The notes under the pieces were generated by a model. It was not told the origin of the DNA and ran no database searches. It was given only the letters and a program-made list of their open reading frames with translations. A program made the position numbers and the translations under genes. Shown one piece after another: positions 48,849 to 59,511 of a stretch of 64,000 bases of DNA. Positions within the stretch are counted from its first letter, which is position 1; each line of letters begins with the position of its first letter. The DNA comes from Limnochordia bacterium (lineage in GTDB: Bacteria; Bacillota; Limnochordia; DTU080). The DNA is taken from positions 288,001-352,000 of the forward strand of contig JBMNJG010000011.1 of the NCBI GenBank assembly GCA_050951545.1. The letters run 5' to 3'.

Positions 48849-52210
<3,362 letters not shown>

Positions 52211-52263
52211 GCCCGCACCGTGTAGACCGACGAACAACAGGGTTCTTGTGGAGGGCTACCAAA

Positions 52264-52557
52264 ATGCAGGCGATTACATCCAAGGACATAGAGCATGTCG
52301 CACGGCTGGCGCGCCTTGGTCTGACGAAGGCTGAGGCCGAGGAGTATGCGGCGAAGTTGGCGAGTGTTCTGGTGTTTAGGGACAAGCTGGCCACATGCGA
52401 AACGCAGGACGTGGCGCCAACGTTTTATGCAGTGTCTGGCGAGAATGAGATGAGGGCAGACCAATGCCAGTCGTCTATGCCCCAAGAGCTGGTCTTGAAG
52501 CACGCGCCTGACCGATATGAGGACTTCTTCCGCGTGCCGCGCATGTTGGAGGATTAG
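52264..52557 (+). CDS. gatC: Asp/Glu-tRNA amidotransferase subunit C
   Basis: IEHVARLARL, HAPD...FFRVPR; operon position. Confidence 0.92.
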   Translation: MQAITSKDIEHVARLARLGLTKAEAEEYAAKLASVLVFRDKLATCETQDVAPTFYAVSGENEMRADQCQSSMPQELVLKHAPDRYEDFFRVPRMLED

Positions 52558-52559
52558 AG

Positions 52560-54047
52560 ATGGGGGAATGCGGTGTGGAACTCTGTGATAGGCCCGCCCA
52601 TGTGTTGCAGGCGTTGCTAGCGCGGCGAGAGGTAAGCGCGGCTGAGGTAACGCAGTCGGTCTTTTCGCGTATGGCATCCGATGAGGAGGCGCTACACTGT
52701 TACCTCGCGGTTGATCAGGATCGGGCACTAGCCTCTGCGAGAGAGATCGATCGACGGCGGCTGGCTGGCGAAGAGCTCTCCATGCTGGCGGGTATTCCGG
52801 TGGCCATCGCCGACAACATATGCACAAGGGAGCTGGCAACAACATGTGCTTCACGCATGTTGAAGGGATTTGTGCCACCGTATGATGCGACAGTCGTACA
52901 CCGTTTGCGGCAGGCCGGGTTGCCAGTTTTGGGCAAGACCAACATGGATGAGTTTGGTTGGGGCTGCTCTACAGAGGGATCGACTTGGGGACCCACGCGA
53001 CATCCGTGGGACAAGTCGTGTCTCCCTGGTGGAGCACACGGCGGCGCAGCGGCCGCCGTGGCGAGTGGTGAGGCGGTGCTCGCTCTGGCGAGTGATACAG
53101 GCGGATCGTTACGCCAGCCAGCTGCACTATGCGGGGTGGTAGGGCTTAGGCCCACCTATGGGCGTGTTTCGCGCTATGGGTTAGTGGCCACCGCTTCCTC
53201 TCTTGACCAGGTAGGGCCCATCACTCGTGATGTGCGAGACTGTGCTTTGATGCTGAACGTGTTGGCTGGGGCAGACCCCTTGGATCCCACGTCGCAAGGC
53301 GAGGATGTACCCGATTTTGCGCGTGCTCTGGAGGCTGGCGTTCGGGGGTTGGTGGTCGGGTTGCCACGGGAGTACTTCGGTGAGGGTGTCGATTCGCAAG
53401 TCGCGGCGCTGGTTCTTCAGGCAGCGAGGCAGCTTGAGAACTGTGGTGCTCGTCTAGAAGAGGTCACGCTGCCAGCGCCCGAGGAAGCCCTAGCCGCCTA
53501 CGGAGTGATTCTTGCCGCCGAGTTCAGCTCAAGTCTGGCGCGCTTTGATGGGGTTCGCTATGGACACCGTAGCCCAAAGGCGCCCGACAGCTTCAGTATG
53601 TTTAGTAACACCCGCGCAGAGGCCTTTGGGCCGGGGGTAAAGCAGGCTATCCTTATGGGTACCTATGTCTTGTCAGCTGGGCAGTATGAGAGCTACTACC
53701 TCAAGGCGGCCCAGGTTCGCACACTGATCATGAGGGCATTCACCGCAGCTTTCAATCATTGCGACTTGCTTCTCACGCCGACTTCACCGACAGTTGCCTG
53801 TAGGGAAAACAGAGCGACGGATGATCTGTACCACATGCATCGACCACACTCTTGCACGCTGGCAGCCACCCTGGCCGGATTGCCAGCAATCAGCCTTCCG
53901 TGCGGTGTAGTAGAGGGCTTGCCAGTGGGGCTTCAGTTGGTCGGTCCACGTCTGCACGAAGAGCGCCTGTTCGCTGCTGCCTACGCCTTTGAGCAGACGG
54001 CCGGAATAGCGCCTCTGTACCCGGAAGGGAGGTCTTCTCGTGGATGA
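52560..54047 (+). CDS. gatA: GatA amidase-fold subunit with catalytic residues substituted (probably inactive glutaminase)
   Basis: GKTNMDEF, SDTGGSLRQPA, ARFDGVRYG present; but IKDN is IADN and GGSSGGS is GGAHGGA. Confidence 0.92.
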   Translation: MGECGVELCDRPAHVLQALLARREVSAAEVTQSVFSRMASDEEALHCYLAVDQDRALASAREIDRRRLAGEELSMLAGIPVAIADNICTRELATTCASRMLKGFVPPYDATVVHRLRQAGLPVLGKTNMDEFGWGCSTEGSTWGPTRHPWDKSCLPGGAHGGAAAAVASGEAVLALASDTGGSLRQPAALCGVVGLRPTYGRVSRYGLVATASSLDQVGPITRDVRDCALMLNVLAGADPLDPTSQGEDVPDFARALEAGVRGLVVGLPREYFGEGVDSQVAALVLQAARQLENCGARLEEVTLPAPEEALAAYGVILAAEFSSSLARFDGVRYGHRSPKAPDSFSMFSNTRAEAFGPGVKQAILMGTYVLSAGQYESYYLKAAQVRTLIMRAFTAAFNHCDLLLTPTSPTVACRENRATDDLYHMHRPHSCTLAATLAGLPAISLPCGVVEGLPVGLQLVGPRLHEERLFAAAYAFEQTAGIAPLYPEGRSSRG

Positions 54048-55527
54048 TACACCGTTTGAGGTGATCGTGGGTCTCGAAGTTCACGCAGAACTGCTTACAG
54101 AGTCAAAGATATTCTGCGGTTGTTCGACGGCCTTTGGAGCCACGCCAAATACGCAGGTATGCCCTGTTTGCTTGGGCCTGCCAGGTACGTTACCAGTGCT
54201 CAACGAAAAGGCCGTTGAGTATGCCGCGAAAGCAGGTCTGGCTCTGGGGTGTGCCATTTCCTTGGTCAGCCGGTTCGATCGTAAGCAGTATTTCTATCCG
54301 GACCTTCCCAAGGCTTACCAGGTCTCGCAGTTTGATCGTCCCCTGTGTACAGACGGACGCGTGGAGTTCATGCTTGGCGGTGAGCTGCATGTAGTCAGGA
54401 TCATGCGGGTGCATATGGAAGAAGAGGCTGGTAAGTCTGTCCACTCCAGCGATAGCTTGCGCGACTCGCAGTACTCGCTTATCGACTACAATCGTGGTGG
54501 ACTAGCACTCATTGAGATCGTCACCCACCCCGACATGCATTCGGGTGACGAAGCCAGGCTCTTTATGGAGCGCCTGCACACTCTGCTGCGCTATATCGAG
54601 GTGTCAGATTGCAGGATGCAGGAAGGATCTCTGCGTTGCGATGCCAATGTCAACCTGAAGATCCTCTCCGGAGAGCAACCGATTCGTACCCCTATTGTGG
54701 AGATCAAGAATCTGAACTCCTTAAGAGCCTTGGAGCGAGCGATTGACTACGAGGCGCAGCGTCAGTACCATGAGTACCTTGATGGTTCGTGGCACCCCGG
54801 CATGCCATCTGGGAAGGTGACGGCGGGGTGGAATGATATCGAGAGTCGCACCTATGTGCAGCGTGAGAAAGAACACGCCGACGATTACCGTTACTTCCCT
54901 GACCCTGATATTCTACCGGTCGTAGTGCGCGAAGGGCAGGTAGAGGCGTGGCGCAGGCAGCTGCCCGAGCTGCCTGCAGCGCGCGAAGCTCGTTTCATAA
55001 GTGAGTATGACCTTCCCGCATATGATGCTGCAGTGCTTACAGCCTCTCGTCCCATCGCTGACTTCTTTGAGGCAGTGGTCGAGCAGTGTCATGACAGCAA
55101 GATGGTCAGTAACTGGATCATGGGCGAGTTGCTTCGGTTGCTCAAGGAGGCGGAAGACGACTCGGAGCATGCTCTTCTCTCGGCCCCCATCACCGCTGCA
55201 GGCTTGGCGCAGTTGCTGCTCATGGTCAAGGAGGGGCGCATTAACGCCAACAGCGGTAAAGAGGTCTTAGAGGTCATGTACCGCACTGGTCGTACGGCTG
55301 AGGACATTGTGCATGAACGTGGCCTAGAACAGATTAGCGACACCGATAAGCTAGATCGCTTAGTCGCAGAGGTCATCGACAAGCATCCTGAGGTGGTAAC
55401 TGAGATCAAGGGCGGGAAGGTAACGGCTATCGGCTTTCTCGTGGGTCAGGTGATGAAGGCGACCCGTGGTCAGGCCAATCCAAAATTGGTCAATCAGTCG
55501 TTGCGGGACCGACTGGGCGTGGATTAG
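54040..55527 (+). CDS. gatB: Asp/Glu-tRNA amidotransferase subunit B
   Basis: GLEVHAEL, YFYPDLPK, EEEAGK, LRCDANV, EIKNLNS, DYRYFPDPD, YqeY tail. Confidence 0.97.
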   Translation: MDDTPFEVIVGLEVHAELLTESKIFCGCSTAFGATPNTQVCPVCLGLPGTLPVLNEKAVEYAAKAGLALGCAISLVSRFDRKQYFYPDLPKAYQVSQFDRPLCTDGRVEFMLGGELHVVRIMRVHMEEEAGKSVHSSDSLRDSQYSLIDYNRGGLALIEIVTHPDMHSGDEARLFMERLHTLLRYIEVSDCRMQEGSLRCDANVNLKILSGEQPIRTPIVEIKNLNSLRALERAIDYEAQRQYHEYLDGSWHPGMPSGKVTAGWNDIESRTYVQREKEHADDYRYFPDPDILPVVVREGQVEAWRRQLPELPAAREARFISEYDLPAYDAAVLTASRPIADFFEAVVEQCHDSKMVSNWIMGELLRLLKEAEDDSEHALLSAPITAAGLAQLLLMVKEGRINANSGKEVLEVMYRTGRTAEDIVHERGLEQISDTDKLDRLVAEVIDKHPEVVTEIKGGKVTAIGFLVGQVMKATRGQANPKLVNQSLRDRLGVD

Positions 55528-55537
55528 GAGCTGGGGA

Positions 55538-56395
55538 ATGTATGGCGAGCTACTGCGGATAGGGCCCATTGCCCTCTATAAGTATGGGACCGCGTTGGCC
55601 GCGGCTTTTCTGGTTGGCGCATGTTTGGCGATGTCGGAGGCTCGGCGCCGCAGGCTGGACACGACAGTCATCGTTGAGCTAGTGGTGCATCTGATGGTGT
55701 TGGGCCTGATTAGCGGTAGAGTGGGCTACATCCTCCCAGACTTGGGTTTTTACCTAACCCATCCGAGTGAGTTTTTCAGGGTGTCGGCCGGTGGGCTGAG
55801 CTATGTTACCGCGTTTGTGGTGGCTGTTGGCTACACTCGTTTCTACGCGAAGCGTCGTGGGCTGCGTTTCTGGGAGCTGCTAGATATATTGGCTCCGGGT
55901 CTAGCCGCCGGGCTGATCATTGGGTCGCTAGGAGCCGTGGAGTGGCAGCCGGCGAAAGGCGCCGTGCATCTAGGCCCTATCTACTGGTCGCCACCGGTAC
56001 TGCTCTTTTTCACCATCGAATACGCTGGGTGTTGGTACATCATGGCGTCGCGACGTCGTCTGCCCGAAGGGCGACGCTTCTGCCAGATTGTGGCCGTGGA
56101 TGCTCTGGCTCGGATGCTGAGTAGTCTATGGGCCTGGATCCTCTATGAAGAGTTCTTGCCGCACGCTTTGTCGACGCTTGTGGGCGCGGTGTTTCTTGTT
56201 GGGGCGTTGGTGTTCGGGCAGATGCTCACCTTTCACCACAGCGGGTTACTGGAGAGTGCGGCGGCAGGTGAGATGACGCAGGCGCGGCGACCCCGCAAGC
56301 GGAGGCTGCCCGCGCGTCAGCGCGCAGTGCTTGCCGCCACTTGGCTAGGCTTTTATCTGCTTTTGGTCGGCTTGCTAGGTCGGACGCCGATGTAG
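55538..56395 (+). CDS. Lgt-like membrane protein (diverged prolipoprotein diacylglyceryl transferase)
   Basis: RIGPIALYKYG, GRVGYIL, GGLSY, LDILAPG match the Lgt N-half, but catalytic motifs are missing. Confidence 0.7.
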   Translation: MYGELLRIGPIALYKYGTALAAAFLVGACLAMSEARRRRLDTTVIVELVVHLMVLGLISGRVGYILPDLGFYLTHPSEFFRVSAGGLSYVTAFVVAVGYTRFYAKRRGLRFWELLDILAPGLAAGLIIGSLGAVEWQPAKGAVHLGPIYWSPPVLLFFTIEYAGCWYIMASRRRLPEGRRFCQIVAVDALARMLSSLWAWILYEEFLPHALSTLVGAVFLVGALVFGQMLTFHHSGLLESAAAGEMTQARRPRKRRLPARQRAVLAATWLGFYLLLVGLLGRTPM

Positions 56396-56402
56396 ATGCC
56401 AG

Positions 56403-56414
56403 CCCAGCTGCTTG
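56403..56414 (+). repeat. Left 12-bp direct repeat (candidate TSD/att core)
   Basis: CCCAGCTGCTTG, 7 bp after the lgt-like stop. Confidence 0.75.
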
Positions 56415-56462
56415 GGGGCCACGCAAGAAACTGCGGCAATCTTCCTGCGGTCGCTTGGGTTG

Positions 56463-56585
56463 GTGGTAAGAACCTAGCGATGCGGTCTTCGCGAAGCCCT
56501 TTTTGCTCATTTTGGTCGCCCGAAGGGCTTTTTTCACCGCCTAAGGGCACACTTTCCCGCCTTGATTTCGCTTCTGGGGCTACCG
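56463..56585 (+). repeat. Partial, diverged copy of the 406-bp unit
   Basis: GTGGTAA..AGCGATGCGGTCTTCGCGAAGCCCTTTTTGCTCATTTTG..CTTCTGGGGCTACCG; 472 bp upstream of the equivalent position in copy A. Confidence 0.9.
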
Positions 56586-56809
56586 TGGATACGCTTCACT
56601 TCGGCCCTACCAAAATGGCCTAGAAAGCTCACGGTAAGCTAGGCCGGTAAAACAGCGCGCTCACCAAAAACCTGCCATCGATCCAGGCCCCAAGCTGCGG
56701 GCCATGGATTCTGATGGACAACTCCTCCATGAGTTGCCCACAGACTCCACAGCCCCGACCAAAGACATCCATTGATTCATTTATTCGTTGTTTCTGGCTG
56801 TTATCTAGT

Positions 56810-57917
56810 TGGACACGCTCGCGAGACTGGCTCGGTAGTCGGACAGATGCACCCGGATTGGTACGTGAGTCGGGGCCAAGAATCCGACCGTGATGGCAAA
56901 ATAGCCGCCCCATCAACCCCTGGGCGCAATGTACGTGGTAAAAGTGCAGCGATGCGGCCTTCGCGAAGCCCTTTTTGCTCATTTTGATCGCCCGAAGGGC
57001 TCTTTTCCCCGCCAAGAGCACGCTTTCCCGTCTCATGGCCCTTCTGGAGCTACCGGGCAGTACATAACCGAACAGTGTCGATCGCCTTTTTCCACTCAGT
57101 CGATGGGGTCAGCTCCCCAGTGCGCGATCACAGCGGGCTCGCTCGGGTCCCTCTGCGAACCGACCCTTCGGTGTTAACCCGGTGGGTGTGTTTCGAAAAG
57201 GGTGGACGGACACCATGCACACCCTCGCGAGACTCGCTCGGTAGTCGGACAGATGCACCCGCATTGGTACGTGAGTCGGGGTCAAGAATCCGACCGTGAT
57301 GGCAAAAGAGCCGCCTCATTAACCCCCGGGGCCAATGTACGTGGTAAAAGTGCAGCGATGCGGCCTTCGCGAAGCCCTTTTGGTTGGTTTGGACGGCCTG
57401 AAGGGCTCTTTCCCCCCAAAAAGAGCGCGCTTTCCCGCCCTGGCGGCCCTTCTGGGGCTACCACGCAGCACATAACCGAACGGTAGTGACTGCCTTTTTC
57501 CACTCAGTCGATGGGGTCAGCTCCCCAGTGCGCGATCACAGCGGCTCGCTCGGGTCCCTCTGCGAACCGACCCTTCAGTGTTAACCCGGTCGGTGCATTT
57601 GGAAGAGAATGGACGGATCAATGGACACGCTCGCGAGACTGGCTCGGTAGTCGGACAGATGCACCCGGATTGGTACGTGAGTCGGGGCCAAGAATCCGAC
57701 CGTGATGGCAAAATAGCCGCCCCATCAACCCCTGGGCGCAATGTACGTGGTAAAAGTGCAGCGATGCGGCCTTCGCGAAGCCCTTTTTGCTCATTTTGAT
57801 CGCCCGAAGGGCTCTTTTCCCCGCAAAGAGCACGCTTTCCGGCCTTGATGCCTCTTCTGGAGCTGCCGGACGGTACATAACCCGACGGTGGTGGTACCTT
57901 TTTCCCACTCAGTCGAT
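56810..57917 (+). repeat. Tandem 406-bp non-coding repeat, ~2.7 copies (starts 56810, 57216, 57622)
   Basis: Marker GCGATGCGG at 56949, 57355, 57761. 56810-57012 is identical to 57622-57824. Confidence 0.97.
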
Positions 57918-58006
57918 GATCCGAGGGGGAAATGCTGTCGACTCCCGGTGGCCACTGGGTCTTAGCTGGCAATGCGCGCGCAGTCAGCGAAGAACTATTG
58001 TCTGTG

Positions 58007-58035
58007 GAAGGATTCTGGAGCCGAACATAGAATTC
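58007..58035 (+). promoter_or_regulatory. sigH-like promoter of the nuclease gene
   Basis: gaAGGAttc-...-ataGAATtc with a 17-bp AGGA-GAAT spacer. Confidence 0.5.
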
Positions 58036-58049
58036 AGCATTGAATCAAT

Positions 58050-58063
58050 CGAACACATGGTCG
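58050..58063 (+). promoter_or_regulatory. Putative LexA box
   Basis: CGAACACATGGTCG; one mismatch to CGAAC-RNRY-GTTCG, between the promoter and the RBS. Confidence 0.45.
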
Positions 58064-58081
58064 TTATGTGAGGTGAGGCCC

Positions 58082-59143
58082 TTGTACTCTCTCTATGTAG
58101 ATGAGGTGAACGTGCCGCTCTCACTGCTACTGACTCGCGAGCTAAAAGCCAGCGAGAAGATCGTTTGGATGGCCTTAACGATGGATGATCAGCTGGAGGA
58201 AAGTTTCCTTTTCTCGCCCAGCCGCCTGGGGCGGCGCACGGGTATGTCCCGGCCTACCGTTCGCAGGGCGACAGCCAAGTTAACCACCGAGGGCTGGTTT
58301 GCTCCACCGGCTAGGCGGGGACCTAGCCAGACCGCGGCACAGAAGCCATCCCCGGATAGGGTCTCCGTACCTGTGGAGTTAGTCATGGCTACTGAAATCC
58401 ATGCACAGGCCAAATTGGTTTATGCCCTACTGCTGTCCAAACCTACGGACCCACCTCGCAAAAGGCAGTTCACATACGCTGAGTTAGCCGGCCGGATGAG
58501 TCTGAGCCCCCAAACCATCAAACACGCGGCTCGTCAGTTGGCCAAGCATGGTTGGCTGGAGATGGAGCAGGCGCACAAGCGGGCACCGATTCGCTTCACT
58601 CTCCACAACCCGGTTGATAAGCGAAATGTAAAAGAAATACTAGACGTGCAGGATGAGCTCCACCGCGCTACGCACCTCGGAGAGGCTCTCATGCAGGCTA
58701 TCTTCTTGGCGCTTGTCGATTGCCTTGACTTCGACGACGGAATGCGCCCAGGTTTCATGAGGAACCCAGCAACTGGCAAGCGTCTGGAGGTCGATCTCTT
58801 CTATTACTTGCACAATACGGCCATGGAGTTCAATGGGGCGCAACACTACCGCGTCACGGAGCGGAATTCGGCTGAGCAGGTCCATAAGCAGCAATGCCGT
58901 GACCAGACCAAACAGCAGATCTGCGCTAAGAAGAAGATCAAGCTGATCGTGATTCAGGCTCACGAGCTGTCCTGCAAGATCATCAAGCGCAAGATTGACA
59001 GGCGGCTGCCATTCCGGCGCGGTCAGGACTTCAACCGGAAGCTCATCAACTATCTCGAGTGTAGATGCGGTGAATACCAGCAAAGAATAGATGAGCGCGG
59101 CTGGGGAACCGCCAGCCAATCTGAGAGAAAGCAAGACGAGTAG
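58082..59143 (+). CDS. Tandem winged-HTH + Vsr/DUF559-like endonuclease
   Basis: Two internally similar wHTH units; C-terminal GE..RPGFMRNPATGKRLEVD..AMEFNGAQHY..RDQTK..IKLIVI. TTG 58082 follows GAGGTG. Confidence 0.78.
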   Translation: MYSLYVDEVNVPLSLLLTRELKASEKIVWMALTMDDQLEESFLFSPSRLGRRTGMSRPTVRRATAKLTTEGWFAPPARRGPSQTAAQKPSPDRVSVPVELVMATEIHAQAKLVYALLLSKPTDPPRKRQFTYAELAGRMSLSPQTIKHAARQLAKHGWLEMEQAHKRAPIRFTLHNPVDKRNVKEILDVQDELHRATHLGEALMQAIFLALVDCLDFDDGMRPGFMRNPATGKRLEVDLFYYLHNTAMEFNGAQHYRVTERNSAEQVHKQQCRDQTKQQICAKKKIKLIVIQAHELSCKIIKRKIDRRLPFRRGQDFNRKLINYLECRCGEYQQRIDERGWGTASQSERKQDE

Positions 59144-59438
59144 TCACCTTGGGTCACCTTGTTCGTTTCGTCAGGGCTCACATCGCAGGAGGAGATGAAC
59201 CCTTTATCCGAGGCTGGAGGCCGCTGGCTACCCCATTGGCAGCGGATGCGTAGAAAGCGCCTGTAAGCAGGTTGTTGTTAGGCGCCACAAGCAATCTGGA
59301 ATGCGTTGGAGCCAACTTAGGGCACAGCAGATGCCAAACGTTGCAGCATACTCCCACGGTGAACAGTGGGACGATTTCTGGGAGAGGCCAGGGGCAGCAT
59401 GATTAGTAACGGGTGTTCGCCGCGATTTCACGTGTGCA

Positions 59439-59450
59439 CCCAGCTGCTTG
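59439..59450 (+). repeat. Right 12-bp direct repeat (candidate TSD/att core)
   Basis: CCCAGCTGCTTG, 7 bp before the valS -35 box. Confidence 0.75.
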
Positions 59451-59457
59451 CTTGTGC

Positions 59458-59486
59458 TTGACAGCCGGGAGGTTGAACTGTATGAT
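59458..59486 (+). promoter_or_regulatory. sigA promoter of valS leader
   Basis: TTGACA-17 bp-TATGAT. Confidence 0.8.
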
Positions 59487-59511
59487 GTGGAAAACTGGCT
59501 TATTGCACGGT

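Follow-up and report, generated by a model that had tools for sequence, protein, structure and literature searches.

A GatA-derived, putatively non-catalytic subunit in the otherwise canonical GatCAB operon of a Limnochordia bacterium

INTRODUCTION

GatCAB is the textbook glutamine-dependent amidotransferase and is essential where asparaginyl-tRNA synthetase (AsnRS) or glutaminyl-tRNA synthetase (GlnRS) is missing. Here we describe the gatA gene at positions 52560-54047 (forward strand) of a 64,000-nucleotide stretch of DNA from a Limnochordia bacterium (assembly GCA_050951545.1, contig JBMNJG010000011.1, positions 288,001 to 352,000; hereafter the window). The gene lies in a gatCAB operon and its frame is intact, and its product lacks two of the three catalytic residues of GatA together with the residues that bind glutamine.

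Ser178 is the nucleophile of GatA, and Ser-cisSer-Lys forms its catalytic triad (PMC2330236). In yeast GatFAB, E330 and R334 hold the substrate carboxylate and D418 binds the amino group, with the Glu four residues before the Arg supporting that Arg; addition of 20 mM NH4Cl bypasses the glutaminase step, and transamidation proceeds (PMC4027206). Thermus thermophilus, Deinococcus radiodurans and Bdellovibrio bacteriovorus possess GlnRS and AsnRS, have neither AsnA nor AsnB, and use GatCAB to make asparagine on tRNA (PMC2330236, PMC4206432).

RESULTS

Catalytic and glutamine-binding residues are missing from GatA

The genome under study (G000) is a 3.64-Mb draft in 16 contigs, 93.9% complete with 1.6% contamination, and the operon lies on its contig segment G000:C11:288001-352000. 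The first-pass annotation had described the gatA frame as intact and full length, and it does encode 495 amino acids that score 522.1 bits against TIGR00132 (cut-off 481.1; residues 17-480 match positions 2-463 of the 466-position profile) and 456.6 bits against the amidase signature PF01425 (profile positions 1-444 of 445). Alignments to solved GatA structures run over the full length, with E values of 1e-133 to 1e-127 and identities of 45-50%. Query residues 17-487 align without a gap to residues 12-482 of S. aureus GatA (2df4_A), and the S. aureus number is the query number minus 5. We take K79, S154, R358 and D425 of the S. aureus protein to be its triad and glutamine-binding residues.

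At the position of the catalytic Lys (K79) this GatA has Ala84 (GCC, 52809-52811), and the cis-Ser S154 and the adjacent S155 are replaced by Ala159 (GCA, 53034-53036) and His160 (CAC, 53037-53039). Two of the three residues of the Ser-cisSer-Lys triad are gone; the nucleophile, Ser183 (TCG, 53106-53108; S. aureus S178), is retained in its DTGGS loop at 53094-53108. These codons had been picked out from the sequence in the first-pass annotation, at 52809-52811 and 53034-53039, and the alignment to the S. aureus enzyme agrees with its reading of K79A, S154A, S155H and a preserved S178. The conserved-column count described below places Gly359 and Ala363 (53634-53648) where E354 and R358 hold the substrate carboxylate, and His430 (53847-53849) takes the place of D425, which contacts the amino group of the substrate. 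The loss of this Asp had also been seen beforehand, as had the change of the FAMGSS loop to FGWGCS, in which Gly133-Trp134 (52956-52961) stand for the Ala-Met pair A128 and M129. The claim that the glutamine-binding Arg is lost (VKRRI to VKQAI) is correct for the second Arg, which is the invariant one and is now Ala; the first Arg, now Gln, also varies in canonical GatAs.

To see how unusual this state is, we turned to the best 120 of 8000 candidates scored in a search of 5.8 billion proteins. The dismantled site is common to the query and four clusters among them (99, 83, 72 and 74% identical), which together form the five-member clade referred to below; the next homologue, 59% identical, is canonical. 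Ala at the Lys position, Ala at the cis-Ser, Gly and Trp in the FAMGSS loop, His at D425 and the intact DTGGS loop are each found in 5/5 clade members, and E354, R358 and D425 are replaced throughout the clade by Gly/Ala, Ala/Gly and His, respectively. His160 is present in 4/5, the cluster P0003 having Gln. Among the 116 canonical sequences that remain, Lys is found in 115, the cis-Ser in 115, DTGGS in all 116, the loop Ala in 114 and the loop Met in 113; one and the same sequence, P0020, lacks both the Lys and the cis-Ser. The state of the clade is thus most unlikely to have arisen by chance. Among 29 genomic GatAs of relatives in which the Lys column is covered, Lys is found in 26, the exceptions being G000 and G001 (Ala) and G005 (Met).

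One count gave 129 GatA columns that are at least 97% conserved in the 116 canonical sequences, and 16 of these are changed in all five clade members, more than the first-pass annotation had listed (in S. aureus numbering K79A, A128G, M129W, N143H, S154A, S155H/Q, G172A, E354G/A, R358A/G, Y370Q, D388A/S, F409x, G412N/D, P418L, D425H and N432T/S). In a second count, over 130 such columns, 21-26 are changed in each clade member, whereas canonical sequences have a median of 0 changes and never more than 9; 98 of the 130 are retained in all five. In GatB, 111 of the 112 columns conserved in 117 canonical homologues are unchanged in the clade, the single change being the conservative I10V. Since GatB is essentially unchanged, the loss is specific to one functional module of one subunit. 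As judged from these residues, the absence of the canonical glutaminase site, comprising two-thirds of the triad and the Glu/Arg/Asp clamp, is well supported, and a protein of this sequence cannot be expected to use glutamine as a donor by the known mechanism.

The changes are shared by independent sequences and the gene is under selection

The first-pass annotation had argued that several separate multi-base changes were hardly sequencing errors. Errors of sequencing or assembly are ruled out by the same state in other species, in 5/5 clade clusters, and in independent metagenome contigs. The cluster P0002 has 10 member sequences and P0004 occurs on 8 contigs from several sources; DNA contigs of the runs X3 and X5 (anaerobic digester and landfill) cover 52246-53881 with 2-3 differences, none of them at the key codons. 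Apparent joints in run contigs were 26-letter matches to contigs of other organisms and were disregarded. In two RNA libraries, short contigs were identical or nearly so to parts of gatA and gatB (record 9 of X18 covers 52928-53136 with 0 differences, and records 2, 4 and 5 of X17 fall in gatB), but DNA may contaminate such libraries and these matches are not counted as expression.

Phylogenetic analysis of 35 GatAs with IQ-TREE places the five triad-less sequences in one clade (support 100/100) with a stem of 0.6 and short internal branches. This clade is nested within the GatA clade of the family (100/98), among canonical Limnochordia GatAs, and its weakly supported sister is a degenerate copy from G005 (92/78). 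Stems in FastTree are 0.40 for GatA and 0.23 for GatB, with within-clade depths of 0.23 and 0.20, although the taxon sets differ and the comparison is rough. As far as branch lengths tell, the pattern is one of a burst of change followed by constraint.

Comparison of gatA with its counterparts in the sister species G001 and G002 gave proportions of nonsynonymous and synonymous differences (pN and pS) of 0.15-0.16 and 0.62-0.64, and corrected nonsynonymous rates (dN) of 0.16-0.18; the ratio to the synonymous rate (dN/dS) is ~0.125, a rough value given that dS is saturated (1.3-2.9). The G002 gene was pieced together from two overlapping contig ends, with 507 codon pairs. On the same rough scale the neighbouring genes have ratios of 0.07 (gatB), 0.04-0.09 (ligA), 0.05-0.09 (dac), 0.09-0.10 (an lgt-like gene) and 0.12-0.22 (gatC). 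That gatA still evolves under purifying selection is a well-supported reading of these substitution patterns.

Some of the same columns are changed outside the clade. The GatA at the syntenic position in G005 has 27 of the 130 conserved columns changed; K79M, R358Q, D425N and the loss of DTGG are among these changes. The protein cluster P0020 has 14 changed columns, including K79N, S154A and D425E with R358 kept; it is sister to G008 in the tree and looks like an independent loss of the triad in a separate lineage of the same order. Nine changes each are found in G003 (L005/L045, G003:C102; A128G, M129L, Y310Q, Y370S and D425N among them) and P0007 (A128G, M129A, Y310N and Y370H), both with an intact triad and an altered glutamine pocket, and their state may represent an intermediate or a shift in donor. 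Because the same columns are hit in separate lineages of the same order, we take this recurrence as substitute evidence that the columns form the glutamine site. In G005 (L042, G005:C183:9000-19000; L043, G005:C159:18000-28000), tblastn detected no gatC for the syntenic gatA, and the adjacent gatB is intact and 63% identical. Another, more divergent pair of gatA and gatB genes (45% and 43% identity) is found in this genome as well.

Sister species have lost AsnRS and keep the triad-less GatA

A second gatA, which the first-pass annotation had said would remove the ammonia interpretation, was searched for in G000 with TIGR00132 (1 match in 2 candidates), with PF01425 at E up to 1 (1 in 5) and with a protein query (1 in 4); only the syntenic gatA was found, and no other amidase-signature gene. 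The protein query likewise found no other amidase-signature match in G001 or G002, and G000 has one GatB match.

GlnRS scores above its cut-off in 6/6 genomes of the family, and since GlnRS is present the amidotransferase would serve asparagine only. All genomes judged for routes to asparagine are drafts of 91-95% completeness, G001 being 95% and G002 91% complete. Searches of G000, G001 and G002 found neither AsnA nor AsnB; in G000 the AsnB search gave matches to the N-terminal amidotransferase domain only and the AsnA search gave none. AsnRS is above cut-off in G000, G004 and G005. In G003 the AsnRS match is split across two frames. G001 and G002 have no AsnRS match above the background of aspartyl-tRNA synthetase (AspRS) and lysyl-tRNA synthetase. 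In these two species the contigs (G001:C22 and G002:C244) run without interruption across the syntenic asnS site, where spacers of ~490 and 360 nt are found against a 1.44-kb gene in G000, G004 and G005. The genes flanking the deleted site are 55-87% identical at the protein level, and no asnS remnant was detected there at E up to 1e-3.

G001 and G002 carry the same triad-less GatA as G000. Since that GatA is common to the three species and asnS is still at its site in the outgroups, asnS was lost after the triad. Such a loss is viable only if the triad-less GatCAB makes Asn-tRNA(Asn), so that the complex would still have to work in G001 and G002, where by gene content it is the only route to Asn-tRNA(Asn) that we found.

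Both tRNA(Asn) genes of G000 have U1-A72, and tRNA(Asp) has G1-C72, a contrast that is described as the identity pair of the amidotransferase (PMC1635274). U1-A72 is also kept in many bacteria with AsnRS, hence its presence is weak evidence (PMC4206432). A bacterial-type AspRS-like frame of 664 amino acids is found at G000:C3.

A different outcome is seen in genus g14 of the same class (G015, G024, G031 and G034), in which a GatA match is found in 0/4 genomes, GlnRS in 4/4 and AsnRS above cut-off in 3/4. This pattern suggests that, once dispensable, GatCAB tends to be lost from the genome and not retained. Two details of these genomes are recorded as such: G024 (99% complete) has no GatA match and no AsnRS above cut-off, so that it would have no apparent means of making Asn-tRNA(Asn), and of the two AsnRS matches in G031 one contains an internal TAA.

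Free ammonia as the probable nitrogen source

We think it probable that GatA has been retained for its structure and its share of the tunnel, in an Asp-tRNA(Asn) amidotransferase that is fed by free ammonia. The residues of the glutaminase chemistry (Lys, cis-Ser and the Glu/Arg/Asp clamp) were lost on the stem of the clade from a vertically inherited, syntenic gatA, and purifying selection has kept the gene, as GatB likely needs both GatA and GatC for a stable GatCAB and its ammonia tunnel. A presumably non-discriminating AspRS would load Asp on tRNA(Asn), and GatB would phosphorylate Asp-tRNA(Asn) with ATP and then amidate it. The nitrogen would most likely be free ammonia, arriving through the emptied GatA pocket and the tunnel or directly at GatB. 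The first-pass annotation had proposed a scaffold-only pseudo-enzyme, with NH3 or another donor, or a repurposed complex. Its scaffold accords with the missing site, the purifying selection, the conserved GatB and the search that returned no second gatA; for the donor, ammonia is what we infer.

Several observations weigh against an ammonia-fed GatCAB. G000 itself has GlnRS (732.9 bits against a cut-off of 425.8) and AsnRS (488.5 against 342.6), and with imported asparagine its GatCAB could be dispensable; the argument from necessity is built on the sister species and their 95 and 91% complete drafts. The dN/dS of gatA (0.125) is somewhat higher than that of gatB (0.07), with the saturated dS making both values rough. 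Within the clade, 9 of the 16 changed sites are invariant, a share no higher than that over the whole protein (302 of 495). Finally, the nucleophile Ser and the DTGGS loop are kept in 5/5, and every clade member has the newly acquired Trp134, His148 and His430, all of which would fit a rewired active site too.

The presence of both synthetases had been named in the first-pass annotation as a state that would make the complex dispensable. Both enzymes are indeed present in G000, and the ammonia reading nonetheless stands, with no AsnA or AsnB found and asnS deleted in G001 and G002. The same pair of enzymes would fit a slowly decaying relic, in which the amidotransferase is no longer needed, or a GatCAB repurposed for a job not involving tRNA. 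The second gatA-gatB pair of G005 and the erosion of the glutamine pocket in G003, P0007 and the DTGG-deleted GatA of G005 (9, 9 and 27 columns) lend themselves to such a scenario. Against it, the frames are intact in all 5 clusters with a dN/dS of ~0.13, GatB keeps 111 of its 112 conserved columns, G001 and G002 lost asnS when the triad was already gone, neither AsnA nor AsnB was found in the three species, and genus g14 shows that outright loss of GatA does occur in the class. We regard a relic or a repurposed complex as very improbable.

The retained Ser and the new histidines raise a different scenario, in which GatA is a rewired hydrolase that frees ammonia from a non-glutamine amide or by another mechanism, with Ser183 as the nucleophile and His148, His160 or His430 as the general base. 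The new histidines are specific to the clade, as the syntenic GatA of G005 and P0020 have different residues there. However, P0003 has Gln in place of His160, the amino-acid-binding E354, R358 and D425 are all gone, and the changed sites show no more than average conservation. To our knowledge, no amidase-signature enzyme works without both the Lys and the cis-Ser. A rewired hydrolase seems unlikely to us, though less so than a relic.

The surroundings of these bacteria also bear on an ammonia-fed GatCAB. No match to the ammonium transporter Amt (TIGR00836) was found in 5/5 family genomes (G000, G001, G002, G004 and G005), compared with a match in 14/14 controls. Glutamine synthetase type I is present in G000 (577.9 bits; glnA at 8527-9930 of L059, G000:C10:64000-82000), and a family search for GlnA gave no match in G001 or G002. 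The contig G002:C217 has ~350 nt in place of the 1.58-kb glnA stretch, with conserved neighbours; in G001 the glnA flanks lie on different contigs and the absence is that given by the family search. DNA near-identical to the operon (at least half of the sampled words) was found in 16 runs from 14 studies. Ten of the runs carry the label bioreactor, and anaerobic digester, landfill and sludge account for two each; one run may be the source of the window itself. Limnochordia are reportedly found in high-ammonia digesters. The absence of Amt and GlnA matches and the labels of the runs fit bacteria of ammonia- and amino-acid-rich settings that have little reason to spend glutamine.

A more specific and speculative version, to which we give only a small chance, is that the GatA pocket has been rebuilt to capture ammonium where the GatCAB tunnel opens. 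Trp134 would hold NH4+ by a cation-pi contact, and His148, His430 and, in 4/5 members, His160 would deprotonate it and release NH3 into the tunnel. Amt/Rh channels have a Trp site and twin histidines, to which Trp134 and the new histidines of GatA can be likened. If true, a glutamine amidotransferase would have become, in nature, an enzyme dedicated to ammonia, and the rebuilt pocket would suit bacteria in which Amt was not found and which partly lack glutamine synthetase.

The operon is otherwise a canonical gatCAB

The gatA-derived gene lies between gatC (52246-52557, forward strand, 103 amino acids) and gatB (54040-55527, forward strand, 495 amino acids), with a gap of 2 nt from the gatC stop to the gatA start and an overlap of 8 nt between gatA and gatB. 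The two flanking genes had been judged normal by eye, and their scores bear this out: GatC has 73.8 bits against TIGR00135 (cut-off 47.1) and is syntenic in G001, G002, G003 and G004, and GatB has 596.5 bits against NF004012, above the curated NCBIfam cut-off. Upstream of gatC is ligA (50060-52210, forward strand), a conserved neighbour that is part of the gene order shared in the family, and downstream of gatB is a gene for an lgt-like membrane protein. The order dac-ligA-gatC-gatA-gatB-lgt-like is common to G000, G001, G003 and G004, and in G002 it is split over two contigs. The operon is the primary, syntenic gatCAB and contains no gene fusion. In an Rfam scan of 49000-59500 of the window (E up to 0.01) nothing matched, neither a T-box nor any other known leader. 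By descent and synteny the gene is, on sequence grounds, a gatA orthologue without the triad and without the glutamine clamp, both of them functional hallmarks of the family; it would aptly be described as a GatA-derived pseudo-glutaminase within an otherwise canonical GatCAB.

This gene content also bears on whether a separate glutaminase, asparaginase or other ammonia-releasing enzyme might dock on, or work beside, the GatA-GatB scaffold. A docking supplier would explain why a full-size GatA with a conserved surface (the 98 of 130 retained columns) has been kept, and nothing more direct speaks for it. However, the block from dac to the lgt-like gene holds no extra gene in any family member compared, G000 has only one GatB and one amidase match, and the apparent absence of glutamine synthetase in G001 and G002 makes a supplier based on glutamine less attractive. 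We therefore consider such a partner improbable, and favour the structural and tunnel role for GatA.

Just downstream of the lgt-like gene, 56463-57950 of the window holds 3-4 tandem copies of a unit of ~406 nt. The copies are 84-99% alike across a 224-nt core and have no Rfam match, and the open reading frames there look like artefacts of the repeat.

DISCUSSION

If the complex works as proposed, a lineage whose sole GatA has a dead glutaminase, and which then discarded AsnRS, would show that in living cells tRNA-dependent formation of asparagine can draw on a different nitrogen source, of which free ammonia is the simplest. The deletion of asnS in the sister species would amount to a natural gene-loss experiment. 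The GatCAB of this clade would offer a ready-made system for studying how ammonia enters the tunnel and is gated there, and its GatA a case of an enzyme subunit turned into a structural pseudo-enzyme. It would also tie the evolution of the translation apparatus to life in ammonia-rich digesters, with no Amt found and glutamine synthetase lost in part of the family. Automatic annotation as 'GatA' conceals non-catalytic forms of this kind. Literature searches found no published description of a natural GatA without its triad.

Compared with the canonical GatCAB of S. aureus (2df4/2f2a), P. aeruginosa (4wj3) and A. aeolicus (3h0l), the locus has the same three genes in the same order, and GatB and GatC are canonical; what differs is a GatA without the Lys, the cis-Ser and the Glu/Arg/Asp clamp. 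In its gene set G000 matches Thermus, Deinococcus and Bdellovibrio, with GlnRS, AsnRS, GatCAB, a U1-A72 tRNA(Asn) and neither AsnA nor AsnB found; G001 and G002 correspond to the class 'GlnRS + GatCAB, no AsnA/B' of the same published survey. In Thermus, Deinococcus and Bdellovibrio, however, GatA is catalytically complete and uses glutamine, whereas in this clade the glutaminase is dismantled.

The closest functional likeness is to amidotransferases deprived of their glutaminase step in the laboratory. Harpel et al. (2002) reportedly found that in serine mutants of the S. pyogenes amidotransferase the transamidase half-reaction still runs on ammonium. Transamidation run on ammonium in glutaminase-bypassed yeast GatFAB is what we propose for this clade in nature. 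The yeast enzyme with NH4Cl and the S. pyogenes mutants represent laboratory conditions, whereas the state of the clade is natural, fixed and under selection.

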